A stretch of DNA of 63,413 bases, filler included, from Aduncisulcus paluster (taxonomy: Eukaryota): NCBI GenBank assembly GCA_024181965.1. It is 35 parts of 35 records of this genome, joined end to end, with 100 filler letters (N's around TTAATTAATTAA, not from the genome) between each part and the next. Parts side by side here need not be neighbours in the genome. Positions count along the whole stretch, not along the records: positions 31,098 to 32,424 come from BQXS01000570.1; 34 more parts are not named here. The stretch is one strand, 5' to 3'. The notes below the pieces were generated by a model, which was given only the letters and a program-made list of their open reading frames with translations, did not search any database and was not told the origin of the DNA. Made by a program: the position numbers and the translations under genes. This document shows positions 5,053-45,162 of this stretch, piece after piece; position 1 is the stretch's first letter, and every line of letters starts with the position of its first letter.

Positions 5053-5294
5053 NNNNNNNNNNNNNNNNNNNNNNNNNNNNNNNNNNNNNNNNNNNNTTAA
5101 TTAATTAANNNNNNNNNNNNNNNNNNNNNNNNNNNNNNNNNNNNNNNNNNNNCCACTCGTTGAACACATATTTCTTCGTGAAATAAGTTATGAGTTCTTT
5201 TCGTATTGATCAGAAGTAATTTCTTTCTTTCCGACAGAGTGGTATTTTCTTTCTTCAGGTGTCTTGCGTTTCGGCTTTGGATATTTGATCATAT

Positions 5295-8964: not shown

Positions 8965-10690
8965 AATCTGACATTCCAATTGTTCTGGAAACAATGTACG
9001 GATAAGACATCTTGGGCCAGAATAATTTGAGAATAAATACCTCCAATAGGCATTGTTTGAAGCTGGATAAAAACATGATAATGACTTGACAATTTCTCTC
9101 ACTGCATTTCCTGGAAGTGATTGCAGACAATCATCATCTTCTTCAAACTCAAAAGCATCCATGGCACATGTGGAAAAGGGTAATATTTGGACATCTTTTT
9201 CTCTATATCGAAGGAATGAAGGAGAAAATGAAGATTTTCCACTGAAATTTGAAGATAAAAGTATCGGTTTTGTATTGGTTGGATCGAGATGTACTGGACC
9301 ATTGTAACGGAATTTCTTTGAATATCCAGAATAATTTGAAAATGGTTTTGCTCCAAGAATCCAGAGAGAATCGCTATCTTCCTCAAGTGGGGTACACAAC
9401 AACTTGGCAACTAATAAATCAGGAGAAGTTATCATAAGAATCTCTTCTTGGACTGAACCATGTCTTAGAACACCACCTCCAATCCTTTTGTTGGCAAAAT
9501 CTGTAACATTATACTTGATTTGACTTTCCACGGTCAACATCGAATCTTCAGGATCCGCAATGCTTATAATAGAGCTGAGATCATCATCAAAGCGTAAATA
9601 TTCATGATTGTGTTTGGAAGAAGAAGATTTTTTTCTGGATTGAGAGCGAAAAAATTCTTTGGAAATATTTTCGGGAGAGTATCTTGCAGGATCCTGTGAA
9701 TATTCATCATGAGAGGGGGCCTTTTTCCTGAAATACCGACGGATATCGACTTTCGAGATTGTTTTATAGATGAGAATAACATGATTTTCAGTCAAATGTT
9801 TTGATTTACCGTTGATATTGAGAGATAGGAAATATTGTAAAATGCAAGCACATTTTTCAACCTGACAAAGTGNNNNNNNNNNNNNNNNNNNNATCATCAA
9901 AGCGTAAATATTCATGATTGTGTTTGGAAGAAGAAGATTTTTTTCTGGATTGAGAGCGAAAAAATTCTTTGGAAATATTTTCGGGAGAGTATCTTGCAGG
10001 ATCCTGTGAATATTCATCATGAGAGGGGGCCTTTTTCCTGAAATACCGACGGATATCGACTTTCGAGATTGTTTTATAGATGAGAATAACATGATTTTCA
10101 GTCAAATGTTTTGATTTACCGTTGATATTGAGAGATAGGAAATATTGTAAAATGCAAGCACATTTTTCAACCTGACAAAGTGGAGATGAAGATGAACTTT
10201 TGGGGGTAGAATAAAGCATAAATTCCATGTCATTGTTTGGATGTGGAAATAAGTTGAAGAAAGAAGCTGCAACCAAACCAGCACACTCGAGAAGACTGAG
10301 GATCATAATAGGATGGTCTCTATCAACCATATCAAAAAGAATTGGTGCTCTAGAGGAAGATTTTGATTTTGATAATGATCGTAGAAATGAAAATAATGCA
10401 TAAAGACAAGATCTGAGAGCATTCTTCAAGATGTCACTCTTTGACATTACTGGTGATGATTTCTCATATATACGTTCAGTGGCTTGAGAAATAAGGGACA
10501 TTAATGAAGTTTTGTTTGCCTCGAGTAATGGGCATAAGCCCTTGAATACCTTAACAAAAAAATCCACAAATCTACCCTTATAATATTTGAGAGATTCAAT
10601 ATATTCCTGACATTTTGTACAAGCAGCAACGATATCTCCCCTTGAAATAAATTTTAAGTTCATAATTGCCACAAAAACAATATTTCTCAT
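8965..10690 (-). CDS. PARG: Poly(ADP-ribose) glycohydrolase (3'-partial; split by an assembly overlap)
   Basis: DFANKRIGGGVLRHGSVQEEI = PARG GGG-x-QEE catalytic signature; FSNYSGYS and AMDA motifs. Confidence 0.9.
9583..10182. repeat. Identical 290-bp duplication flanking a 20-N gap (assembly artefact)
   Basis: 9583-9872 equals 9893-10182. Confidence 0.9.
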
Positions 10691-11119: not shown

Positions 11120-14100
11120 ATGAAATTAAAGCACGATAAAACGATATATTCTGGTGGTAAGAGTTGGAAGATCATTTCTAAATTAGAATTTAGTGGAAAC
11201 TCTAAAAAACTTGCTGCTGTTTGTGATAAATTCATCAATATATTCGATGAGAAAGGAGAACGGAAGGATAAGTTTTTTACAAAACCAGCAAACAAAGGTC
11301 CTAAGAATTTTTTTATTACAGATTGTGCTTTTTATCATGATGGGTCGCGATTGGCCACTTGCCAAACTGATGGAGCTGTATTTGTGTTTAAGTTTGGAAA
11401 GGAGAAGAAATCCATTGGAAATCGGTTTCTTTTAGAAGTTCCGGCAACATGCATGTGTTGGCCAAAAGCTCTTGATAAGAATCTTCTCGTTGGTACTGCT
11501 ACTGGTGAGATAAAGCTTTGTGTTTCAAAAGGAAATACCATTGAAACAATATATTCTCCTTGCCCTGAGCCTGTAACGTGTATGAGTTATATCCCCGACT
11601 CTTCGACTGTCTTTGCTGGGTTTGCCAATGGTGATCTTCATATTCTGTCTCCTGATTCAAAAGATAAGAAAGCAACAAAATTATATTCATTCCCATGCCC
11701 AATCACGCACCTTAAATGTACCAAACATTCAGTATTGATTGGTCTTGCAAATGGTAGTCTTCTTGCGATGACTCCTAAGAATTCCCTAAGTTATCACTCA
11801 ATTATGCACTGTGAACCATGGGAAATCGAAATGCCTCGCTCCCAAAAACCTATTCAGGCCATATGTTGTGACCCTTCTGCTATGAGTTGTCTTGTTTTAC
11901 GCTCTCATACTTGTCTCATGCTTCGCTTTGGCTCTTCTCGGCAATGGGAATGTGCACGTGATGTGACGGTTCGGGATGGATTCTTTTCAGCCGCTGCTTG
12001 GAGAAATGATGGTGCTGTGTGCGTTATTGGAACAGTATATGGAGATATTGATATGTTTAGCGCTCGAATGCGCACTGTTCGTCTTGGGGACTATGAAGCC
12101 ACTTTTTCAACTCCCTCGTCGTTTATTCTCAGCAAGGAAGCAGAAGATATTGAAGGCGAGGATGGTGAGGGTCTCGGTCGTTGGGTCATCACCTCATCAG
12201 CTTCCGAGATATCCTCTGTCAAAGTTGTTCGTGACCGGTTTTTGGTTGCTCGGACACCCACTTCCCTCCTTGTCGGTGATTTGCTCGGTGGAGAGGAAGG
12301 AAGAGGAGTCTGGGGAGAAGTTCCCTGGAGAGGAGGAGGAAAAGAGAAATTCCTCTTCGACACTCCCGGAGTGGTTCTTATTCATAATGCTGGAGAAATT
12401 GTCGTTATTCCGTATGGGTCTGAGAATGTCCTCTGTACGGTCAGAACCGAACATGCCTCGCCGGCTCTCCTCAGTGTCCGTCTCGGAGTTGACGATGAAG
12501 TGATGGTTGAGAAAGGAGTGGCCTGTCTCCAGCCATCATCCACTCCGGATGATGATGAAGACCAATATCGATTCAAACGTTTCGCTTGTCTTGCTGATAG
12601 ATGTACCATTTCTGTTACATCCCTTGAAGGTTCCTCATTCATGCCCATATTCACTGTACAACATGACACTCCTATTGACTGGGTTGAGTTAAATGACCTT
12701 GCTAACCTCATGCTCTTTAGGGATCGTAAGAGACGTCTGTTCATGGTGGCCATCCCTCCTTCAATGGAAGAACAAGAAGCGATGAGGAAGTTCTACCTCG
12801 TTCATCCTCAGGCTCGACAGTTCTCTTCTGGCTCTGGCATGGCTTTTGAGGCTCATAACGCGACTCGATTACTGCTTGATAGCGTGGGTTACGTACAATG
12901 GGTTCCTGGATCTGATGTCTGTGTGGCTCAGAGTGGGGATCAGCTCTTTGTTTTCTACTCTTCTTCCGCTTCTGCCCATTCCAGACCTACCCAGATCATG
13001 GTCAAAGGAGAGGCTGTTGCTATCGAACGTGAGAGTGGTATGACGGTGGTTCTCGTTGAAGAGGAAGGAGAAGTGGCAGAGTATCAGCTCAGTGAACCAC
13101 TTATTCTCTTTGGGACTGCTCTGGATCGTGGGAATATGCACGGAGCAATCGCTGCACTCGAAGATCTCCCTATTGCCGATGCTGTTCCCCTGTGGAAACG
13201 ATTGGCCTCTGTCGCTATCGCTTGTCGCGACCTTGCCGCTGCCCAGGAAGCCTTTTCTGCCCTTGGTTTCACTACAAAAGCCAGGATGCTCCGCCAGTTG
13301 ATGTGGAAGGTCGAGAAGATGAGAGTGAAAGACCAGAAGAGTGATGGCGAGATTGATGCTGTCATTCAAAGCACTCTTGTTCTTCTTGAAGATAGTGATG
13401 TTGGAAGGACTCTTAGTGGTACAGTTAGTGGATCGATGGGGACTTCTGGGGATTCTTCCTCTTCATCTCCTTCTTCCTCCACTTCGATCTCAGCTTCTGT
13501 CTCTCTTCTTCTGTCCTTTGGACGTGTTGATGACGCCATTGCACTTAAAAAGACTGTTCTCGATTATAAGGGAGCTCTCGAGATTGCTGAGCAACATTTG
13601 GCTCCTTCTGAGGTATCTACAATGCGTGTGGAATTCGAAGAATGGCTCAAACGTACTGGTCAACAAGCTGAGCTAGGTCGTTTAAGCGAGAAGAGTGGAG
13701 ACTTCGAGGGTGCCGCTTCTCTATATCTTAAGGGTGGGGCCATCCCTCAGGCATGTGAACTCGTGAAGAAGCACGGCGTCTCTATGTTTTCCTCTGGAAT
13801 TATTGAGAACATTATCCAAAGGCTCAAACAGGGCAGGATGTATGGAACCTGTGGTGAGTTCTTGACTTTCTTGGGAAGATTCAATGAGGCGCTTGAGGAG
13901 TACAAGCGTGGAAAAGAATATCGGAACGCATTGACCCTTGCCCGTCAACGTTTCCCAGATCGTGTTCGTTTCCTTGAAAGTGAATGGGGAGACTATCTCG
14001 TTGCCCAACAAAGCCCTGACATTGCTGTTGGACATTACATTGAAGCAGGGGAAGGTATGAAAGCCCTTGAAGCTGCTCTTGCTGCCAGACAGTGGAAGAG

Positions 14101-15727
14101 CATTGTTCGTATCTTGCCCTCTCAAGACGTTGACAGTATTCAGGTCAAGGAATTCACAGGACGTCTTGCTGAGGCGATGGTTTCTGTTGGACGTGTGAAA
14201 GAAGGTATATCATTCTTTTTGAAGGCTGGTCTACTCAAACGTGCGGTTGATGTTTGTGTCCGTGAAGGTGAGTTCGCTGAAGCCAAGAAGATTGCCTCAT
14301 CCATGTCTCCTTCTGAGGCCTCTGCGTTGTTGTCTGAACATGCTCATGTATTTGTGAAGAAAGGAAAGATTCATGAAGGGTGTGACATGTTGGTCACAAT
14401 TGGACACATTGATGATGCTCTGTCTCTCTGTTTGAAGAATGGAGCCTACGATCATGCAGTCACTGTTGCCAAGAGATATAAGCCTGATGCCCTCGAGGAT
14501 GTGAGTATCAGCGTTAGTAATTCTCTCGCTAAGGAAGGCAAATATGACCATGCCGAACAGATTCTTTTGAGTGGAGGGTATTCCAAGGCTGCTGTCGATA
14601 TGTATGTCAAATTCAGGATGTTTAGAGAGGCTTTAAGAATTGGGAGGGGAATGTGCAACGATACTGTTCCCAGCACTGCTTATATATGGTACAAAACTCT
14701 TGGAGAATCACTTGATTCAATGGAAATTGTTGCCAAGGAAGGATGTGCCAACGAGTTGATGAACTATGCAATCAATATGGAAGACTTCGATACCGCTGCT
14801 TTGGCTGCCCAACACACTGATAACCCTGTAATCAGTGCTGAGAAAGTTGAAGTGGGCAAAGCAGTGTGGCTCGAGGAACAAGGAAGACACACTGAGGCTG
14901 AAGCGTCATTCATTGAAGCCAAGAAACCAAGGGAGGCCGTCTTGATGTGGATCCATGTTGGAGACTTTGAGTCTGCCATGCGTGTTGCTTCCGACCATTG
15001 TCCTTCCTCCGTTCAGGAGGTCAAGGTTGCAGAAGCTGAGGAACTTATTCGTAGTGGAGATGTTGGTGGTGGAGCTCGTCTTCTTGTCCAAGCTAACAAG
15101 GCCCACGAGGCTGTGATCGTCTTGAAAGAATCTCACATGTGGAGTGCTGCTCTTGCTGTTGCCAAAGCCCATGTTCCTCACATGGTCAGTGAACTTGCTG
15201 CCGCCTATGCTCATTCTGAAGGAAGTGTTCAGCGTGCTTCCTCACCCACTCGTGTTGACTCTCAGCCTGTGCGTTCTCAGATGACAATGAATGTTGATGA
15301 AGATGAAGATGACATGTTAGCATCCAGAACAACGTCAAAGGCTGCGGAATCAAAGAGGGGTGAAGCTGCGCGTCAGCATGAAACTCACGATTCTTTGATC
15401 AGTCAGAGGAAATGGGTGGAAGCCTTCGAGGTTGCTGCCAGTGAGTCTCCTCAGGCCATTGCCCATGTTGGAGGTGCTCTGTGCACGGAGCTTATACATG
15501 CCAAACAGTACATTGCTGCTCTGTGTGTGATGTTGGATAGTTCATTCAAACCTCATTCAAACAAGGAGTTTGTTATGATGTCAGATGCTTTGAAAAATGT
15601 CGCAGGTCAGTGTATTTCAAGTGCTCAGACTTATCCAAAACCTTTCCTCGAGAGTGTGTCTGCTCTTCCTGATGAAGCTTTCCCAAAACAATTGTATTCT
15701 ATTTTTGGAGCTGAGAACACTTTATTG
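11120..15727 (+). CDS. IFT172: Intraflagellar transport protein 172 (WD40 + TPR/alpha-solenoid), 3'-partial
   Basis: GERKDKFFTKPA, HDTPIDWVELN, YVQWVPGSDVCVAQSG, LESEWGDYLV, AEASFIEAKKPREAVLMW motifs. Confidence 0.95.
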
Positions 15728-15827
15728 NNNNNNNNNNNNNNNNNNNNNNNNNNNNNNNNNNNNNNNNNNNNTTAATTAATTAANNNNNNNNNNNNNNNNN
15801 NNNNNNNNNNNNNNNNNNNNNNNNNNN

Positions 15828-19933: not shown

Positions 19934-20574
19934 NNNNNNNNNNNNNNNNNNNNNNNNNNNNNNNNNNNNNNNNNNNNTTAATTAATTAANNNNNNNNNNN
20001 NNNNNNNNNNNNNNNNNNNNNNNNNNNNNNNNNCTATTCTCACTCAAGGAAACAGTACCAAAGGAAAGAGTACCATCAACTGTTACATCTTCATCAAATG
20101 AAGCACTGTTACCAACATTCAATACACGATGTATCTTGTTCACGATCACAGGAGTGGAGATAGACAGACTTGAGTTGGCTGCACTGTATAAAATGGCTTT
20201 ATATGTCAATAGAAACAGAATATCCTGAATAAAATGACCCGTAGTACTTGTTATACAGAGCATTCCTGAAGAATTTGATGGGTAAGGGAGGATATTTGAA
20301 TCAACAGTATCATACTATGATAGCTTAGGAAGGATCATTAATATCAAGACCTTTGGTACTTCTGACTAATATTCTCTCATTTTCAAAGACCAATACCGAG
20401 AGAATCTAGTGAAATGGATGTATAATGCAGATTCTGATCCGAAAATAAAGTAATGAGCTGGTCAGAAGGATGAGACATAATATCTTTGATACTAACTGTG
20501 AATAGTGTAGATATGGTGTGATTAACAGTTTTTTGGTCCTCAACGAAGCGACACTGAAAAGGGATGATCATCTA

Positions 20575-20627
20575 TGATAAAATAAAAATATAAATAAATT
20601 CGTGAGCAAAATATTATTATTATTACA
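20575..20627 (-). mobile_element. Putative 53-bp 3' LTR (TGTAAT...TTATCA) after PPT 20628-20637
   Basis: 28 nt after the chromodomain stop: ggtgggggaa|TGTAATAAT...TTATCA|tagatgatcatc. Confidence 0.6.
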
Positions 20628-20655
20628 TTCCCCCACCAATGGGCGATTAAATCGC

Positions 20656-22004: not shown

Positions 22005-22544
22005 TATTGACCATGATGGAATTCTGTCTCGAGTGGAACCATCAGACATGATGTTTCTGCCGTTTCTGCCGTTTCTGCCTTCTCGGCTGTCTCTACCATC
22101 TGGATCTTTTTATTTCTACCCCTGACATTCTTTCTTTCCCCATTCATGTAATTATTTTACTTGTAAAGAATCACACAATACAACTTTCGAAGGCGCTCAG
22201 AAATTAATTAATTGTGGCGAATTCGTTGGAACAGATAATGATATTTCTAACATTAATTCTCTTTNNNNNNNNNNNNNNNNNNNNTATTGACCATGATGGA
22301 ATTCTGTCTCGAGTGGAACCATCAGACATGATGTTTCTGCCGTTTCTGCCGTTTCTGCCTTCTCGGCTGTCTCTACCATCTGGATCTTTTTATTTCTACC
22401 CCTGACATTCTTTCTTTCCCCATTCATGTAATTATTTTACTTGTAAAGAATCACACAATACAACTTTCGAAGGCGCTCAGAAATTAATTAATTGTGGCGA
22501 ATTCGTTGGAACAGATAATGATATTTCTAACATTAATTCTCTTT
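22005..22544. repeat. Identical 260-bp duplication flanking a 20-N gap (assembly artefact)
   Basis: 22005-22264 equals 22285-22544. Confidence 0.9.
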
Positions 22545-24321: not shown

Positions 24322-26786
24322 TCAAAAGAAACTATATGGCCTCTGTGAACCCGAATATCTCCTCTCACAAGCTCTTCCGTACCATCCTTCCTTGCATTTA
24401 CAAGCTCTGGACCCATCACTGATCGTGGCACATCCATACGAAGATTCAGTTTCACACAAACAAATGTCACGATCACAGAACATTCCACCCCAACCTACCT
24501 TACACGAACAGTAGAAGGGAGGCTCATTCTTGGAGGAATCACCAGCAATACACGAACCATGGTCGAAACATTCGGAGTCATGTCCATACTCACCGTATCC
24601 AATGGCACACATGTTCCACTGACATGCATCTCCACTGAATCCCCATGCACACAGACACGAGTGAGTGAGAGGGTTGCATACACCAAGACCTGAACAGAGA
24701 ACGTCACTTGAAGGGTGTGATAGACATTCATGGGTACAAGCATCTCCATACCAAATGTATTGTGGATTCGTGCCATCTTCATCACTTGTGTCCACCACAC
24801 ATTCACATTCACCTGTAGCTGTGTCACACTCACCATGCCCACCACACAAAACTCCATCCGAAGAAATTGGGCAAATATTCGCATCACAATACGAACCGTT
24901 CCAACCATGTTCGCATGAACAAGAAGCAACCATGGTCTCCTCATTCAACTCACAAACACCATGGCTCGAATCAGAGGTGCCACATTCAGAGCATGCTGTA
25001 TCATTTCCAGGTATATCACGATAATCTGGGTGTGTTGCAGGATCAATGCATGTCCCAGAAGACGAACTCAGAGCAAGGCCATGTGGAGCACATTCACATG
25101 TGGATGATGATTCATTCGCATATGCAGAATAGCTTGCGGTTGTGGGATCAGAACTATCGGAATAAGAATAGTCTCTACCACAAGGATAGTCCTCAGCATC
25201 TCCATCAGAAGATACAAATACATCGGTGGGAATTGTTGAGAAACATGATGATCCATACCATCCTGAGGAACATTCACATACAATAGCTTCAGAAGACACA
25301 GAAGAAGGATCAGAAGAGGATGGATCAAGGAAGGATCCAACAGAACATGTTCCATTCCCCTCACAAGAATCTTCGTCAGAACAACTCAATTGGCATGCTG
25401 ACCCATAATACCCTGATTCACACACACATGTATGGGTGGCAGCATCACATGTTCCACGAGAAGATCCACTGCACAAACCAAGATCGTCAGAAACAGGACA
25501 AAGGGACGCACAATCAGTTCCATACCATCCATCTGAACACTCACAGAATAGTGGGGAGGATTCATCACCAGAGTCAAAGTCAGCATCATACACACATGTA
25601 CCACGCTCACCACCACAGTTGGAGCATGCAGAAGAAGAAGAAGAAGCTAACACACATTCACCAGAGGATATGTCTTCATAGTATCCTGACCCACAGATGC
25701 ATGCCAACTCAGTGTCATCCACATCATCCACAGAGTAATCAACTCCACACACACGATGATCTTCCAGATATGAACATGATGAAGAAGAGGAAGATGATGA
25801 AGAAGAGTCAGATCCACATGCAGACGTCGTATCCTGGGAAACAAGTCCGGACGGGTCAGAACCATCCACATCTCCGAACACAATTTCAACACCATCTTCT
25901 GACAAATCCCGTTCACACAGTTCATCAAGGGTTTCGAAACACTCAGACACAGTCGACCCACAATCAAGTCTATTGTCACTCACATCAACATATGCGACAT
26001 TCCCAAGACCATCAATGGCTTGTTGCAACAGAGCAAGGTCAGAGATGGAGTTGTCACTCAGAGTCAGATGTGTCACACCAGAGAGACCAGGCTGCAGTGA
26101 AACGATGGTAGGGTCAGAGATGCCATTGGAGGACAGATCAAGATGTGTCAGAGTGGATGACAATGGATACACTTTCGTCCCATCAGAAGAAGAGGCATCA
26201 TCATAACTGTCGACACACTGACCACTGCACATGGCAATGTTGTTCAGCAAAGAAGTGAATGATGACAGGTCGGAACCAATGGAATCATCACTCCCACTGA
26301 TCTCCAAGGAACGCAACGAACACAGACCAACACAGTACGATTCAGACGTTCCATTCCAGCGTGAAGTGTCAGACTCAAGATCCATCTTCAGAGCACCGAC
26401 AGCATCCGTCAATGTGCTCAGAAGTGATACATCCATATTTTCAAGGGAATCGAGCTCAAGCACATACAACGAGGATAAGGATGCAATGGGTGATAGATCA
26501 GAGATGAGAGTGTTCCCAGGCTCAAACGAAAGGATTTCAAGGTGCTCGGCATCTTCAAGCCCTGAGAGGGAAGCCACGGTGGTTGGGATGGTGAGAGATG
26601 TGATGGTGGAGAGATCATCCACAGTCAGTGAGGAGAGAATGTTTTCAGCAGCAGAAGAAGAACATAACGATTGAACAGCTGCATCATCAACATACATGGA
26701 TTCACATATAGCTTCAACGAGGGCAACATCCATCCCAAGAGAAGACAGTAGTGTCACTCCACTCTCAATCTCACACAGGTCACCAG
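24322..26786 (-). CDS. LRR + tenascin/laminin-type EGF-repeat surface protein (5'-partial)
   Basis: N-terminal LRRs followed by ~10 CxCxxGWxGxxC repeats. Confidence 0.88.
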
Positions 26787-29593: not shown

Positions 29594-30673
29594 CNNNNNN
29601 NNNNNNNNNNNNNNNNNNNNNNNNNNNNNNNNNNNNNNTTAATTAATTAANNNNNNNNNNNNNNNNNNNNNNNNNNNNNNNNNNNNNNNNNNNNTAATAT
29701 TGGTATAAATAAAACACAATTAAACTATAAACCGATATTATATACTTTTGGTATATAACATCCTGCTCTTCCTAAAATAGAGCCTCTCACCCTAAGAAAG
29801 CCTTAATTATTGCGCATAACAAATATTGTTACTTTGTTCAAATTTCATTAAAATTAATATGAATTTTTGTGCAATAGTTTAATATTATTCCATCTTAATA
29901 CGGCTCATTATTGCTCTATTATTCAAGATTTTGTTGAAATAAATTAATAAATTATTTCATATATATTTTTTTTATAAAATTCTATTTTTAGGTATTTTTT
30001 TTCTTTTGACTTGGAGTTCATTAATTTTTCCAAGTTTCCAGGTATACTTTTGAATTCAACAAGATTGTCGATTTAATACGTTTTTTTATCGTAAAAACTG
30101 AAATTTTTTGGTCCCAACCTCTTCTTGGCCTTTCAAAGTATTCTTTTCCCTGCCTCACCATGAATTAATAAAAATTTTGGAACTTTCTTTTATGCAAAAA
30201 TGTTTTCTAGCAATATCATGAATAATATTGTTTTTATAGCGAAATCTGTCGAGTATTTCTCTCGATATGAAAAAAATTTCTTGTTATTCGGAAGTTTTCA
30301 TAATAAGGAACAAAATAAAAGAAAATATATTCTTTTGAATCATTTTTATAAAAGATTTGTTCAAGAAAACCTTAATAAATCGATAATATTCTCGAAACCT
30401 AAATTTTTCGAGTTTTGCTTGATTTCCCTCTGTATATGGCGTAAAAATCGATAAAAATCGTCGTATGTTTTGTAATTTTTCTCATTCTTTCGACTTATTA
30501 TCATTATATTAATATTATTTTCCTATTTCCATTTTCTGATTTTGCTTTGTGGTAGGTCAGATTCCCCATAAGTAAATTGTATCACATTACCCCTAGGAAG
30601 GTATACCACAATTTAATTAAATTGCGATAAGATACTATCTACCTTTATTTTTGCTACCTATTACTAAGCCATT

Positions 30674-30997: not shown

Positions 30998-31097
30998 NNN
31001 NNNNNNNNNNNNNNNNNNNNNNNNNNNNNNNNNNNNNNNNNTTAATTAATTAANNNNNNNNNNNNNNNNNNNNNNNNNNNNNNNNNNNNNNNNNNNN

Positions 31098-31519
31098 ACA
31101 ATAATGTCCTCATTTAGGGGATCTTCCGGGTCCACAGTATCAAGTAGTTGATGTAGGCGCTGTACAAAAAAACTGACAGAACGTTCGTCCGCCTTGCGGA
31201 GTTTTAAACGTTGTAATTCATATAATACGTCCAACGCGGATTTTTTTCCATAAAAATCCGATATTTTTTTCAAGAAAACCTTCTCGGTAGCGACAGGAAG
31301 TCCATCATCAGCAGGATTTGGAATAGCTGGGTTCACAAGTTGACATTTCCCGATACTCTCGTAGATCTTCCGGATTGGTGCTGTAATACACACAAATAGG
31401 GCAGCTTTTCCATTCAGAGCTCGGTATCTACGAAATTTTTCAAGAAATGACCGGAAGGCTGCTTCTCCGTATTTTGCCAATAAAGGCACTCGAAAAAGGT
31501 CAGTTTCAGGGCTTATCAT
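31098..31519 (-). mobile_element. Gypsy gag N-terminus
   Basis: PLLAKYG..F..F...YRALNGK..LF shared with the gag at 43592-44714, which carries CCHC and protease. Confidence 0.8.
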
Positions 31520-31542
31520 CTACCTTTGTTTTTGATCAAAAA

Positions 31543-31612
31543 TGTTGCGGTAGCAAATTTACTAAAAAGAAATCTTCTATGTGTATTCTATTTTTAGAAC
31601 TGGGCCATAACA
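31543..31612 (-). mobile_element. 70-bp 5' LTR (TGTTATGG...CCGCAACA) nested in another element's RT
   Basis: Imperfect terminal inverted repeat, AGTAAAT, bounded by RT coding sequence on one side and palindrome+gag on the other. Confidence 0.75.
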
Positions 31613-32424
31613 ACGTGAAGGGCTTGCTGGAGGAAGGCCTAATCGCCGAGTCAGACTCTCCTTGGTCGGCTCCAGCCTTACTAACCGATAAAAAGGGCAA
31701 CGACACACGACTGTGTGTGGATTACTCTGCTCTCAACAGGAATACACTTCCGTTGCCTTTTCCAATCCCAATGATTGCAAAGATGCTGACTCGACTGGGA
31801 GGCAAAAAGTGGTATGCCACTCTAGATCTCCGCTCGGGATTCCACCAAATTAATATAAAGGAGGATTCGACAAAATACACAGCATTCACAACACCATCTG
31901 GGCATTATGAGTACAGGAGACTTCCATTCGGACTCAAGAATGCACCAACCCATTTCCAGGGCCAGATGTCCAGGGCATTCAGAGGTCTTATTCCAGAGGT
32001 CTGTGAGATCTATATTGACGACATCATCATCGCCGCAAACAGCCTGGAACAATTGGTAGAGAAGTTACGACAAGTTTTCGACAGACTAAACAACCTCAAT
32101 CTCCGCCTCAAGGCGAAGAAGTGTGTCATAGGTGCGAAGAAAATAGAATATCTGGGGATGGAACTAAGCGAAAAAGGACAGACTATTGCTGAGTCCAGAC
32201 TTCAGGGAATCAGAGATTTAAAACACCCCACAAACAAGAAACAATTGAAGACTTTACTGGGGTTCTTGGGATACTTTAGGCAGTTCATACGGAACTACGC
32301 CACAATCGCGTCACCGCTTATCGAGATGACAGCAAAACAGAAGAGCTTCGTGTGGAAGGAACCACAGGAGGGAGCCTTCAAGAAACTCAAGGAATTACTC
32401 CTGAAAAGACCAGTACTAACTCAC
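31613..32424 (+). mobile_element. Ty3/Gypsy reverse transcriptase (partial)
   Basis: SPWSAP, RLCVDY, LDLRSGFHQ, LPFGLKNAP, YIDD. Confidence 0.95.
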
Positions 32425-39061: not shown

Positions 39062-40647
39062 TCATAGCACAACAACAGCACGACATGATCCATCACAGCA
39101 TGAGATAAATTTTTCCTCAACTGATGAAAATACGAGGTAACATCCTTGTTCAGCTGTCTTAGATTGGTATTTAGATAAAACAAGATCAGAAGTATAAAGT
39201 TGGGATGAAAAGGATGTATTGTTCTTTTCACCAGAAAAATTATCCACAACAAACCGAACTAACCCAAATTCATTCAGTCCACTCTCTTGAATCTTATCAT
39301 AATCCAAAGTAATGGGACCGAACATATTACTGAGAAAATCGATGCTATTTTCGTCATCTCCAAGATCAAGTTCGGACACGGCATTACTCTCCTGGGCAAG
39401 AGGTCTCCATAATATTCCGACGCAGAGATATATTGTATCATCGAAAAGAATGATTGACCCATTGACATCCATTGTGCATTCATAAGGGAGTGCAGAAACA
39501 CTTGAAAGACAGACCGAAGAGGAAATATGATCGTGGGGAATATTAATGAAGGATTTTCTACCGAGAGGATTTGATGAATCCGATAGAGGAGAGTTGTGGG
39601 ATGCAATGATAGATTTGGTTGAAAATAAAGAAGACAAGGAAGATGAAGTGACACTGGAACTATTTGAAACAACACTTACATTCGGCGTATAATATTCAAT
39701 CGAATCCACTAACACATCACTCTCAACAACAACATGGGTGCAGAATGATCCAATACACTGAACAAGATAATGTTCAAGGTCAGTGCAACCAGTCGACATT
39801 TCCTGTTCCTCACAAGAAACTGGCTCACGAGAGAAAGTGTGGAAACCATTGCATAAAGTTGATGATGAGGATGATTGCAATGCAGCGACTTCATTAGTTC
39901 CTTTGGGAATAATAAATAATGAACCCTGGACAATATATTGACCAATGACAAAAGGATCAAAGTCAAGAGAGGAATTTGGACGGTGATTTACATGAAGATC
40001 AGAAATATTATCACCTGTCTCGACCAAAACTCGTTTCCCATCAAAGATAGTCACGCAATCACTTCCACAGATATCAACGGAACAATCATCACCATCCCAA
40101 CCTGAAATGCATTCACATATCAAAGATCCACTCTCTTGAAGGATACATTCACCCCGTTCTCCACAATCACAAGATGCTTCAGAACACGATGGTCCAATCC
40201 ATCCCTCATGGCACAAGCAGACTCGCTCACCTGTATCAGAATCAGTTTCACACATTGACCCATGATTTGAATCACATGTACAGATATCAATTTCACAAAA
40301 TAGCCCATACCAACCCTCATTACAAATACACTCGCTAGCTCCTGTACTAATATTAGTTGTCAAGCAAGTTCCATGATTCACAGAGCATAATGAAGCAGGA
40401 TCCACTCCACAATCGCCATTCACAACTTCACAATAAGAATAGACATCCCATCCGGGATCACACTCACAATAGTTTTCATAACTCTCTGAATCTTGAACAC
40501 ACACTCCATTGCCATAACAGGATGTCTCTCCTGAATTGGCAGCTCCACAGCCTTCTTCAGAACAAGTCGGACCGTTCCAACCAAGATTGCATTCACATTG
40601 GTGTAATGTGTAAGTAATTCGAATACATTCTCCATGATCATTGGAGC
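39062..40647 (-). CDS. EGF-repeat (tenascin-like) protein, 5'-partial
   Basis: Multiple CxCxxGWxGxxC repeats. Confidence 0.85.
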
Positions 40648-40974: not shown

Positions 40975-41056
40975 TGAGAAAGTTGGGATTCGAACCCACG
41001 CGCTTAAATTGGCAAAGGAGGCATGACCGGAGTCATACCCGCTGAGCCATCGAGCT
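40975..41056 (-). pseudogene. tRNA-like cassette (A box + B box/T arm; acceptor stem unpaired)
   Basis: TGGCTCAGCGG ... GTGGGTTCGAATCCCA. Confidence 0.7.
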
Positions 41057-41183
41057 GTTATAAGAAAAGAAAGAAAATAATAATAATAATAAGGAATCTA
41101 GAATTTGAGGAATTGTATTATACCTACGAATAAGGTTTGATTAAAAGAAGGATTGAGCGGGTAGTCCAGTTCTAGGGGGGAAG

Positions 41184-41266: not shown

Positions 41267-41275
41267 TTGGACATC

Positions 41276-42060
41276 ATGTCAAAAGCAATTCTTAGGCTAA
41301 CGAACAAAGTGGAGTTATTAGAAGCTCGAACTTACACTGAATCAAAAAATTCACTGGAGACGTCCAGTGATACTGCTTCACCTGGTAAATTCGTAAAATT
41401 TCCTATTTTTAAAACTGAGAAAGAAAAAATGTCCATTTCCACTCATCCCCATGAACCCATTTTCGGTGAGAAAAAATTTATCAGCGACACCGAGACTCGA
41501 ACCCAGGCCCCTGCCGCAGCAAACCCTGTAAGTGACCCATTAGATTTCGCTGATCCTCACGAGCAAAAGAAACTTCCCCCACCCGTATGTGGAACTCTAC
41601 CGAGGTATCCATCACCCCTAAAGACCCATCATGCCCTAGCATCAGATGAATTTCTCACAGAGGCATTCGCAAGCCCACTAACAAGAACAGGTCTTGAACG
41701 AAAGCAGATGACACCTGCAATGTTCGATGCAAGAACACACACTCTTCACTCACCCGCAGTTATCTCGGAAGTGGGCAAACCACCGATCCTAGAAGTATTA
41801 AGTTTCAAGGCTTTTGAGACCTTTATCTCCAGATACAAAGCATACGAGAGCAGAGGGGGAACTCGCCCCATTCACGCTTGCATACCTGATTGCGTCGCCA
41901 GAACTGTTATCGCGTACCATCCAGACTCTTCTAAGGATGTCTTTACCCTTGTCAAAGAGGAAGTCGCCCCAAAGACCTTAGAGGAATTCGTCGCACGTTT
42001 GAGCACGTACAAGTTATACTATGACAATACGATGACATCAATGCACAAGTACAATATCAA
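41276..42060 (+). mobile_element. Gypsy gag (3'-partial) with N-terminal extension
   Basis: PILEVLSFKAFETFISRYKAYESRGGTRPIHACI homologous to the other gags. Confidence 0.7.
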
Positions 42061-42160
42061 NNNNNNNNNNNNNNNNNNNNNNNNNNNNNNNNNNNNNNNN
42101 NNNNTTAATTAATTAANNNNNNNNNNNNNNNNNNNNNNNNNNNNNNNNNNNNNNNNNNNN

Positions 42161-43491
42161 AGGAGTTGAGCTAAGACCACAGCTATTGAATTCATAAAGA
42201 ACATCCTGTGTGATCTCACCAACCCATGAAGCCAACTCAATGTCTTCAGCCATCATTCCACATCCACCTGCACCACATGTACACTGATTGAACGTACATG
42301 GAGAGGCAGCAGTCTGGAGATCGACAATTAAGTACTCGGTGTACAAACCACCGGCATATTGAACGGCAGAACAGTTCTTGAATTCGGTACCAGAGAGATC
42401 AAGCTGGGTGTAAGAAGAGGAAAAGACACCCTTGGGTTTGGTGAGGTACACAGCACCACCACTTCCACCACTGGAACAGTTAGTAAAGGAACATCCAGAA
42501 ATATTGACGAAAGGAACAGTAAGGTATATGGATCCACCATCACTGCCAGCAGAAGATCCAGAGAACTCAGCATCAAGGATCATGTAATCTGGATTCATGA
42601 GAAGACTCATGGTCAAGGTGAAGTGGAAATCACCTCCCTTACCACCGGCACTGTTGTGATCAAACTGACCAGCAATCACCTCGAAGGCAGTCACTCCATC
42701 AGTATCGAGACATCCACCATTACCACCGGCACTGTTGTTGTCAAAAGTTACCTCTTGGAGGATCACTTCTTCACAGTCGGAGGATAACACACCTCCATTT
42801 CCATCAGCATGGTTGGCAGTGGCATAGACCTCATAGAATACAAACTCAGTGTACTCGGTAACATACAGAGCACCACCATCCCCACTAGCACTGTTACGGC
42901 TGAAGGTGAGACCTTCAAGAGTAATTTGCTGTTGGTTTCCAGAGCTAGCTTCTCCAGAGATGTAAATGGCACCTCCATTTCCAGCAGAAGCAGTATTGTT
43001 GGTGAAATAGCCATTGTCGAGAGTAAAGTTCTCAGCACCAACAGTCTGTTCATTGACATACATACATCCACCATTTCCAGCAGCAGTGTTGCCATCACAG
43101 GTTACATTGACAAACTTGGGCTTGGCGACATCTTGCAAGTACAAGGCACCACCATCACCACCGGTACACTCGTTATCCTCAAAAGCACTGTAAGTAAATG
43201 TGATGGATCCAGCGTTTTCAAGGTGGAAGACAGCTCCAGAACCAACGGATGTACAGTTGCTGAACTCACCATATTCAAGAGCGATAGACTCTTCCCCAGT
43301 TCCAATAACACATGCAACAGCACCACCAGGACAGTCTCCAGAGTCAGCTGTCTTCACAATGTTCGTGTAGCCACCAAAGTAAGACTTGAACTGGGTACAT
43401 TCGAACATGGAATGGGATCCAAGCGTGATGTTAGAGAATTCATTCATAGCAATGTTTCCGAAAACAGTGGCACTGAACAAAGGAGTGTCTG
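42161..43491 (-). CDS. Pmp-like (GGA[ILV]/FxxN) beta-helix repeat protein fragment
   Basis: Repeated FxxNxAxxxGGA[LIV]Y motifs. Confidence 0.85.
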
Positions 43492-43591: not shown

Positions 43592-44714
43592 TGGGCATTA
43601 CGTAGGCTGAGAAGGCAAAGCACAAAGCTTTCCTCCCCGGTAACTCAGGAAACTCTGCCTTAAGTTTAACTTTCTTTTGCAGGTCCAAATTCGAACCATC
43701 CGCCAATTCCAATGATATTGGCACCGAACTACTCCTGATAGACTGATTTTGCTGCAATCTATCAACCACCTTAAAACTAATAAAATTTTCTTCAGCTCCG
43801 GTATCCAAAAGAGTTTGTACAGAATGTTTAGCCTTATAATTATCACACCATAGGAACGTTGACAAACAAGGAGAAGCTGCTTTACTAGGGAGAGAAACAG
43901 CCTTAGCGGATCTTCGTTTATCCGTTCCATTTGGACAGTCTCGGGCATAGTGTCCCATTTCATGACACTTATAACATTCTACATCCTCGATTCGAATTGT
44001 GGGTCTTGAAGTTACGTGAGGCCCCATCTTCTTCCTGTCTTTCATGAAAGAACGCTTTCTTCCATCAGAGTTGGTCCCCTTGAACGAGGATAATTCACGA
44101 CGTGAATCATGTTTGTGGAACTTCTTACTTGTTGATTGAGAGTAACCCTGATATTGGGCTGCGTCCTCGCGAGACTCCTTGACGATTTGAAGTTGACTGA
44201 AGACCACTTTAGTGAGATTAGCCAAAGAACGCTTCTCCTTCTGAAGGGCAGCTTCCATACGCGTTTTAAACGCTTGATGTTCAATTCCTTTGAGAAAATA
44301 CTTGCCAATCGTCTCCTCAGTGAGAATTTCGTCTTTGTCTAGGCGACGGATTGTGGATCGGTACCGCTTCACATAAGCTGCGATTGCATCCTCGGTTACT
44401 CGTGTAAGCTTTGTCTTTGACAAAATGTTGAGAACATCGAGAGCAGAATAATGACCAAAGTAAAGATCCACGGCGTTCAAGAAGTCCTCTTCGCTTGATT
44501 TCACCAAATCATCAGATTCAAGATCGGCCGGGTTAGGAAGCTCATTTTCGGTTACATCCTCATAAATAGCACGTGTGTCCGGATTGATTAACGCAAACAA
44601 GGGCGTCTTCCCTCCCAGGGCACGATAACTTTCAAAGGACTGCTGGAATGCAGTAAAATACTTCTGCCCGAACTTAGACAGTAACGGTCTTTCTTTGTCG
44701 ATTAGTCTTTCCAT
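43592..44714 (-). mobile_element. Gypsy gag-protease (single ORF, 3'-partial)
   Basis: CYKCHEMGHYARDC knuckle; LLDTGAEENFIS protease. Confidence 0.92.
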
Positions 44715-44737
44715 AAAACGACGTAATTGATCAATTA

Positions 44738-44785
44738 TGATGTGTTCTTAGGAAACGGAACAAATTTACTCAATAAAGAAAAACA
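44738..44785 (-). mobile_element. Putative 48-bp 5' LTR (TGTTTT...ACATCA)
   Basis: Contains AGTAAAT; followed by a 14-bp palindrome, 9 nt, then the gag ATG. Confidence 0.6.
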
Positions 44786-45162
44786 CCGGTTGATGTCTAA
44801 AAATAGAATCTCTGAGAATGATACCTTGGGATCATAACACTAGCACGATCAACAACAGTAAATCCAGGTCCTTCCAATCTCCAATTCAATATAGTCAGCA
44901 CTTCAGTAGTCATAAGATTAGCGATAGGTGGTATCATAATATCAGGATACGTCTCAATAATAGAGATAAGTTGATTACAAAAAGCAAGAGCGGCATCTTT
45001 ATCAGCAGATTTCAATTTCACAACATAAACACNNNNNNNNNNNNNNNNNNNNNNNNNNNNNNNNNNNNNNNNNNNNTTAATTAATTAANNNNNNNNNNNN
45101 NNNNNNNNNNNNNNNNNNNNNNNNNNNNNNNNCATAGAATATTGTGGTAATCGCAATAAAAA

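Follow-up and report, generated by a model that had tools for sequence, protein, structure and literature searches.

A 14-bp palindrome at the primer-site position of two compact gypsy-type retrotransposon 5' ends in Aduncisulcus paluster: a candidate self-complementary substitute for the tRNA primer site

What starts reverse transcription in a long terminal repeat (LTR) retrotransposon in which a perfect palindrome stands where the primer-binding site is expected? Nearly all LTR retroelements and retroviruses need a host transfer RNA (tRNA) to start reverse transcription and, in the established retroviral scheme, it is the 3'-OH of the minus-strand primer that defines where the 5' LTR ends on its inner side. 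The question is raised by two elements, referred to here as A and B, found in a 63,413-base stretch of DNA (the window) from Aduncisulcus paluster, a free-living flagellate belonging to the Fornicata. Both have the same layout, reported in a preliminary description of this DNA and confirmed here by direct reading: a short LTR ending in CA, a 14-bp palindrome containing TGATCA, nine nucleotides and the gag ATG. It is tentatively proposed below, as the best of the explanations considered, that the palindrome is a self-complementary substitute for the primer site, acting through RNA-RNA pairing in self- or trans-priming and/or in dimer linkage.

In the window, 35 unrelated contigs of 1.0-6.8 kb are strung together by linkers of the form N44-TTAATTAATTAA-N44 (e.g. 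30998-31097), and features on different contigs have therefore no positional relation. The draft genome of A. paluster comprises 29.4 Mb in 25,863 contigs, and its genome note contains no transposon analysis (PMC9933649). The evidence used here consists of the window contigs and of contigs from two public runs of one sample (X1 and X2), the latter aligned to contig 16 alone with a likeness of at least 80%. Note that the RNA label of run X2 is a guess and that positions 31458-31502 are left uncovered by this run.

Contig 16 (31098-32424) holds the 5' end of element A on its minus strand, together with a reverse transcriptase (RT) fragment of another gypsy element, which element A has interrupted (31613-32424, plus strand; Pfam RVT_1, E 4.6e-36). 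The 70-bp 5' LTR of element A (31543-31612, minus strand) reads TGTTATGG...GCAACA on the element strand and contains the motifs CTAAAAATAG and AGTAAATTTG. The perfect 14-bp palindrome TTTTTGATCAAAAA (31529-31542) begins at the first base past this LTR and is followed by a 9-nt spacer, read directly as CAAAGGTAG on the element strand (31520-31528), and by the 140 N-terminal codons of gag (31098-31519, minus strand), which are cut by the contig end. The gag ATG (31519-31517) has an in-frame TAG immediately upstream.

The limits of this LTR were obtained from the run contigs. Records of X1 and X2 align to 31543-31612 only and then continue into unrelated flanks, unrelated sequence being found before 31543 in three run records and behind 31612/13 in two. 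Because the same 70-bp unit has differing flanks, it is a discrete repeat, and the LTR/palindrome boundary of element A is fixed to a single base; a TG...CA unit present in more than one context, which is the test applied here for an LTR retrotransposon, was thus found for element A. Two further run records contain the RT gene unsplit, which gives the sequence preceding 31613, and these copies stay in frame across the insertion point (...EEIEKH/VKGLLEEG, the slash marking this point). Together with the breaks in the run contigs, they place the outer end of element A at 31612. Among the run contigs, the LTR shows a T>G change at 31582, a 1-nt deletion at 31555 and a T insertion behind 31565, and the palindrome, spacer and gag start of element A are free of reported variants. 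Word depth in the gag and LTR bins exceeds that of the flanking RT by a factor of 4 to 70, a depth which is not equal to copy number.

Element B lies on contig 23 (43592-45032), its 5' end being on the minus strand and interrupting a gag-like gene of another retroelement (44840-45032, minus strand; paralogues P0008-P0010). Its 102-bp 5' LTR (44738-44839, minus strand; TGTTATGATCC...ACATCA on the element strand) is followed by the perfect 14-bp palindrome TAATTGATCAATTA (44724-44737) and by the 9-nt spacer CGTCGTTTT (44715-44723, minus strand, element strand given), both from direct reading. A single ORF (open reading frame) then codes for gag and the start of a protease (43592-44714, minus strand; ATG 44714-44712) before being cut by the contig end. 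The gag part carries a CCHC zinc knuckle (zf-CCHC, E 4.9e-06), while for the protease the gag-asp_proteas match is weak and below the cut-off, and a DTGA motif is present.

The ORF that flanks the LTR of element B is 100% identical to P0008 and 98% identical to P0009 up to ...VVDRAS, and it departs from them exactly at the TGTTATG start of the LTR. Since the unsplit paralogues diverge at this very place, the outer (5') LTR boundary of element B is confirmed at 44839, and its inner (3') boundary is placed by homology with element A. P0010 starts part-way along the flanking ORF, and the C-terminus of P0009 is Cys/His knuckle-like. Nested insertions appear to be common among these retroelements.

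Besides an identical distance of 23 nt (14 + 9) from LTR end to gag ATG, the two elements share several LTR features: a TGTTATG start, a CTA(W5)TAG motif and, 24-26 nt further, the block AGTAAATTTG. Their gag products are 37% identical over 132 aa. Element A being cut before the knuckle and the protease, its assignment to the family relies on this identity with element B. Only five gag homologues were found among 5.8 billion proteins, every one of them from A. paluster. P0003 is 62% identical to the gag of element B and has the same start Met, and P0005 extends the ORF of element B towards RT. As for pol, both contigs end before it, and domains of RT, RNase H (ribonuclease H), integrase and a chromodomain are present instead in the homologue P0007, which is 38% identical across 97% of the gag query and has precomputed Pfam matches to RVT_1, RT_RNaseH, a zinc knuckle, Integrase_H2C2 and Chromo. 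These domains support a Ty3/gypsy lineage of the chromovirus type and bear out the gypsy affiliation proposed earlier. No LTR sequence is common to any two contigs of the window, and alignment of gag against metagenome contigs gave 116 pattern stretches and no relatives.

Concerning these shared parts, the 14-mer TCTAAAAATAGAAT (CTA-W5-TAG) occurs in both LTRs (31585-31598 and 44796-44809), in opposite orientation relative to gag, and near-identical copies are found in unrelated contigs at about 15693-15706, 29979-29991 and 1255-1267; it could serve as a core promoter or an initiator in A. paluster. The predicted A. paluster protein P0004 has an N-terminus like the ORF of contig 15 (30668-30997) and continues as gag from ...QSFESYRALGGK on, which would correspond either to a host gene carrying an insertion of 5'-truncated gag or to a chimeric gene model.

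With the LTR edge at 31543, the 3' end of the primer of element A must anneal to the beginning of the palindrome. The palindrome occupies the position of the tRNA primer site, as had been claimed. A canonical tRNA-primed element has a site starting with TGG within a few bases past its 5' LTR, and neither element has such a site: the 23-nt leader of element A contains no TGG at all, and the sole TGG in the leader of element B overlaps the ATG. For these reasons, a conventional tRNA 3' end is excluded as primer, and the leader is too short to leave room for a second primer site. Descent of the palindrome from the initiator-tRNA primer site, also suggested in the preliminary description, found no support, the ATCA tetramer alone being shared, with A and B differing around it. 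Judging from the two sequences, the primer 3' ends that they require are different, so that one host RNA could not prime both elements without mismatches close to its 3' end; together with the joint change of both palindrome arms described below, this favours the palindrome of the element itself as pairing partner.

Several other primers were considered and rejected. The primer of Tf1 is the element's own RNA, paired just past the 5' LTR and freed by an RNase H cut within an RNA-RNA duplex. For A and B, a scan for LTR-leader complementarity covering the whole LTR gave best duplexes of -6.4 and -5.9 kcal/mol, which were equalled or bettered by shuffled LTRs in 0.42 and 0.81 of the cases, respectively. 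Priming by a poly(A) tail on the TTTTT of element A was rejected because element B reads TAATT. In the dictyostelid element Skipper, the primer site has given way to a polypyrimidine stretch whose function is unknown (PMC5006619). No such stretch was found at this place in A or B, whose palindromes begin with TTTTTG and TAATTG, respectively, both mixing purines and pyrimidines.

As for the palindromes themselves, TGATCA occurs 28 times in the window vs. 41.5 expected, which is no enrichment and, if anything, an under-representation. Only two of the 28 reach a 14-bp palindrome, and both are located at the homologous 5' position of gag. The palindromes of A and B are identical at 10 of 14 positions vs. 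three of nine for the spacers. The 8-bp core and the outermost positions are the same in both (conserved core TTGATCAA), and the four differences form two complementary pairs. The covariation suggested in the preliminary description stands as far as these compensating pairs go, and two copies are too few for a covariation claim. Taken alone, the compensating changes are only suggestive, and the conservation of the whole motif is strong; the combination of the homologous site, the contrast of the palindromes with the spacers and with LTRs of unequal length, and the two compensating pairs is not explained by chance.

A background for this arrangement was taken from the frame AGTAAATTTG-gap-TTGATCAA-N12-ATG with free arms, which matched 6 viral-contig and 45 metagenome-contig stretches. 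None of these 51 matches had a gag-like ORF, and fully complementary arms were found in three, which represent one distinct sequence. At the RNA level, the predicted homoduplex amounts to -12.4 kcal/mol for palindrome A and -13.4 kcal/mol for palindrome B, and no hairpin is predicted for either palindrome in isolation (0.0 kcal/mol).

Seen as the equivalent of the primer-binding site in a fornicate chromovirus lineage with very compact 5' ends, the palindrome would find its pairing partner in the same palindrome on a second genomic RNA, a transient fold-back being less likely. The two palindromes would form a 14-bp RNA duplex. One of them would be cut on its 3' side by an RNase H-type cleavage, such as Tf1 makes on an RNA-RNA duplex, leaving a 3'-OH paired beside the U5 of the partner RNA. 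Minus-strand strong-stop DNA would begin from that 3'-OH, and the same RNA duplex would also link both genomes. Should each cycle copy the primer site anew from the primer, as happens in retroviruses, perfect symmetry would be restored mechanically; under this proposal, such regeneration would be the reason why diverged families stay perfectly palindromic. We infer the pairing partner, the cleavage and the priming, and the case for priming or dimerisation is an argument by elimination from the sequences of two copies. The fully specified route, i.e. two co-packaged RNAs pairing through the palindrome, one of which is cut at the duplex edge and primes on its partner with its own 3'-OH, is possible and somewhat doubtful.

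Several points weigh against a self-complementary primer site. The independent examples number two. Neither family is represented in the window by a 3' LTR, a polypurine tract or a full-length copy, and for neither was a target-site duplication seen. The inner LTR edge of element B comes from homology only. Both compensated pairs are A/T swaps in AT-rich DNA, for which the chance is about 1 in 10 once the left arm has changed. The chief difficulty in mechanism is that a long primer consisting of a genomic 5'-fragment RNA would leave no evident stop for plus-strand strong-stop synthesis. Concerning relatives of the two elements, a third related gag, on contig 21, has no TGATCA palindrome. An alternative LTR flank in run X2 shows TTGATC a few bases past the LTR end with non-palindromic arms (a consensus of two contigs with an agreement of 0.65); it could represent a variant of the leader that is degenerate or non-palindromic, or reflect a target-site preference. 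An internal tRNA fragment or another host RNA is a candidate primer, and the window holds no tRNA gene (ARAGORN) and no Rfam match at gathering score. Finally, the block AGTAAATTTG was considered as a poly(A) signal by analogy with the AGTAAA signal described for Giardia (PMC3916229), and this has no support, since AGTRAA was found in the 60 nt after none of the 16 long ORF ends in the window.

Among the other explanations, the one that survives best, and which is still rather unlikely, is that the palindrome is a dimerisation or packaging sequence or has some other function in the leader, for example in translation or as the site of a dimeric DNA-binding protein. Priming would then be ensured by something else, which anneals in part to this short leader or to the gag start. 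Its position just 5' of gag matches that of the palindromic dimerisation sequences of retroviruses and Ty1, and a stable predicted homoduplex without hairpin, as well as the conserved 8-bp core, would suit such a function. Like retroviral dimer initiation sites and the PAL sequence of Ty1, it is a short self-complementary leader sequence near the gag start for which a duplex is predicted; unlike them, it does not lie beside a separate tRNA primer site and occupies the primer-site position itself. Indeed, with a leader of this length and a verified LTR edge, any primer must overlap the palindrome, and in element A it would have to do so without a TGG. For a protein site, a kept half-site would be expected and not the compensated alteration of both arms.

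A second explanation, which we regard as unlikely, is that of a conventional site at which a processed host RNA complementary to TTGATCAA, for instance a small RNA or a fragment from inside a tRNA, would prime, the symmetry of the arms being incidental. Sites for half-tRNA primers exist in other LTR elements, as described in PMC6317226, and the sites of A and B resemble those of copia and Ty5, which pair with an internal part of a host RNA, in having no TGG start. The identity of the core and of the outermost positions in both families would agree with a common host RNA. Set against this, primers for the two families would have to be unlike at the second and third bases counted from their 3' ends, and both arms have been altered together. 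Both palindromes are also perfect over 14 bp, and in the background fully complementary arms were limited to three of 51 matches, which represent one distinct sequence. The copia and Ty5 sites, moreover, are non-palindromic and conserved across families that share a tRNA, unlike the arms seen here, which differ between families.

A third explanation gives the palindrome no role in replication: it would be an inherited sequence, the remnant of a preferred TGATCA integration target or a target of GATC methylation. Palindromes of 14 bp are indeed not rare in this AT-rich window (10, two of which overlap in a TA run, vs. 4.7 on average and 13 at most among 200 shuffles), TGATCA strings occur downstream of two pol 3' ends, and the alternative flank with TTGATC points in the same direction. 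Concerning methylation, bacterial adenine methyltransferases of this kind act on GATC. Prokaryote-derived adenine methyltransferases are reported from carpediemonad relatives in a preprint in which GATC has no occurrence (bioRxiv 10.64898/2026.05.21.726589), and they are taken as a lead only. The insertion target of element A, known from the unsplit RT run contigs (...GAGAAGC/ACGTGAAGG), is devoid of TGATCA, which also disposes, for this copy, of the earlier suggestion that TGATCA is an integration target. A palindrome internal to the element and fixed at 9 nt from the gag ATG in both families, better conserved than its spacer despite a gag identity of 37%, with the two 3'-side sites at chance level, makes the absence of any role improbable. 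As for a library-ligation artefact at GATC, it was rejected, as the palindromes end at 14 bp and stand at homologous positions in two diverged elements, and palindrome A sits in a high-depth bin of run X1.

The preliminary description had listed three more sites with a similar arrangement, at 20575, 5295 and 41266, and none of them could be retained. The first is the 10-bp palindrome GATGATCATC, which actually lies at 20563-20572, on the 3' side of pol, past the end of its chromodomain (E 4.3e-08). The second is a bare TGATCA near 5286 with non-palindromic flanks (6 bp; 5283-5294). It is also on the 3' side, about 900 bp downstream of a pol C-terminus, recognised by a matching C-terminal peptide. 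Among the 26 TGATCA sites other than those of A and B, palindromes of at least 10 bp were seen twice, with about two expected.

The third site is the odd palindrome GACAT-C-ATGTC (GACATCATGTC) of contig 21, actually at 41270-41280 (plus strand), which lacks TGATCA and overlaps the ATG (41276-41278) of a distant gag homologue. The gag N-terminus is matched by residues 173-249 of this ORF (hhalign probability 62.7%, E 7e-5); the homologue has an N-terminal extension, and its layout is unlike that of A and B. The palindrome is downstream of an LTR-like module marked by TGTTATAAG at 41058, CTATTTATAG and AATAAATTGCT.

Abutting the TGTTATAAG start of this module, a tRNA-like fragment with a T-arm-like 15-mer and a D-arm-like stretch was observed on the minus strand (40984-41057). 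It could reflect an insertion next to a tRNA-derived sequence. As a tRNA it was rejected, neither ARAGORN (default) nor Rfam making a call and the T-arm-like 15-mer alone matching. On contig 11, a perfect 13-nt odd palindrome, GCGATTTAATCGC (20643-20655, minus strand), was seen directly past the pol stop of the chromovirus, 5 nt before the purine-rich tract GGTGGGGGAA (20628-20637), which is followed by a TG-starting putative 3' LTR.

Elsewhere in the window, contigs 7 and 12 contain perfect duplicates of 290 bp (9583-9872 and 9893-10182) and 260 bp (22005-22264 and 22285-22544), respectively, each pair flanking a 20-N gap inside its contig; they look like unmerged scaffolding overlaps and not like biological repeats. 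Long ORFs without interruption were also noted at 11120-15775, 24322-26757, 39062-40504 and 42113-43480, with products including an intraflagellar transport (IFT)/WD40-TPR-type protein, EGF/teneurin-like and leucine-rich repeat (LRR) surface proteins and a Chlamydia-PMP repeat protein.

LTR elements with a non-canonical priming site are already known, and a palindromic version, if the reading of a self-complementary primer site is true, would be previously undescribed. The LTRs of Skipper are much longer than those of A and B. Like the latter, Skipper is a chromovirus without a TGG site, and it has a conserved non-tRNA motif after its left LTR for which self-priming is suspected; unlike the palindromes, this motif is a degenerate polypyrimidine stretch (both as described in PMC5006619). 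According to PMC6317226, the Tf1/sushi and plant Tcn1 chromoviruses self-prime and have no tRNA primer site, a feature which the lineage of A and B, as chromodomain Ty3/gypsy elements, would share. In Tf1, the start of the transcript, which lies inside the LTR, anneals to the primer site. The site is here self-complementary instead, and its pairing with the LTR remains at the level of shuffled sequences. A literature search gave, among the titles and abstracts listed, no palindrome at the primer-site position of an LTR element, and 'Aduncisulcus' and 'retrotransposon' occur together in no paper of the library searched.

LTR elements of a free-living fornicate are examined here for the first time. 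Exceptions to tRNA priming, such as the self-priming of Tf1, half-tRNA primers and the Skipper motif, are informative on how RT and RNase H choose a primer. If the palindrome is indeed a self-complementary primer site, dimerisation and priming, which are usually separate, would be merged in a single site. The element would also illustrate the degree to which a retroelement can be compacted, its LTR being 70 bp and its leader 23 nt long in a protist whose promoters are minimal. Under the more doubtful route with two co-packaged RNAs, the palindrome would be re-symmetrised with every round of replication, and host tRNAs would be dispensable.

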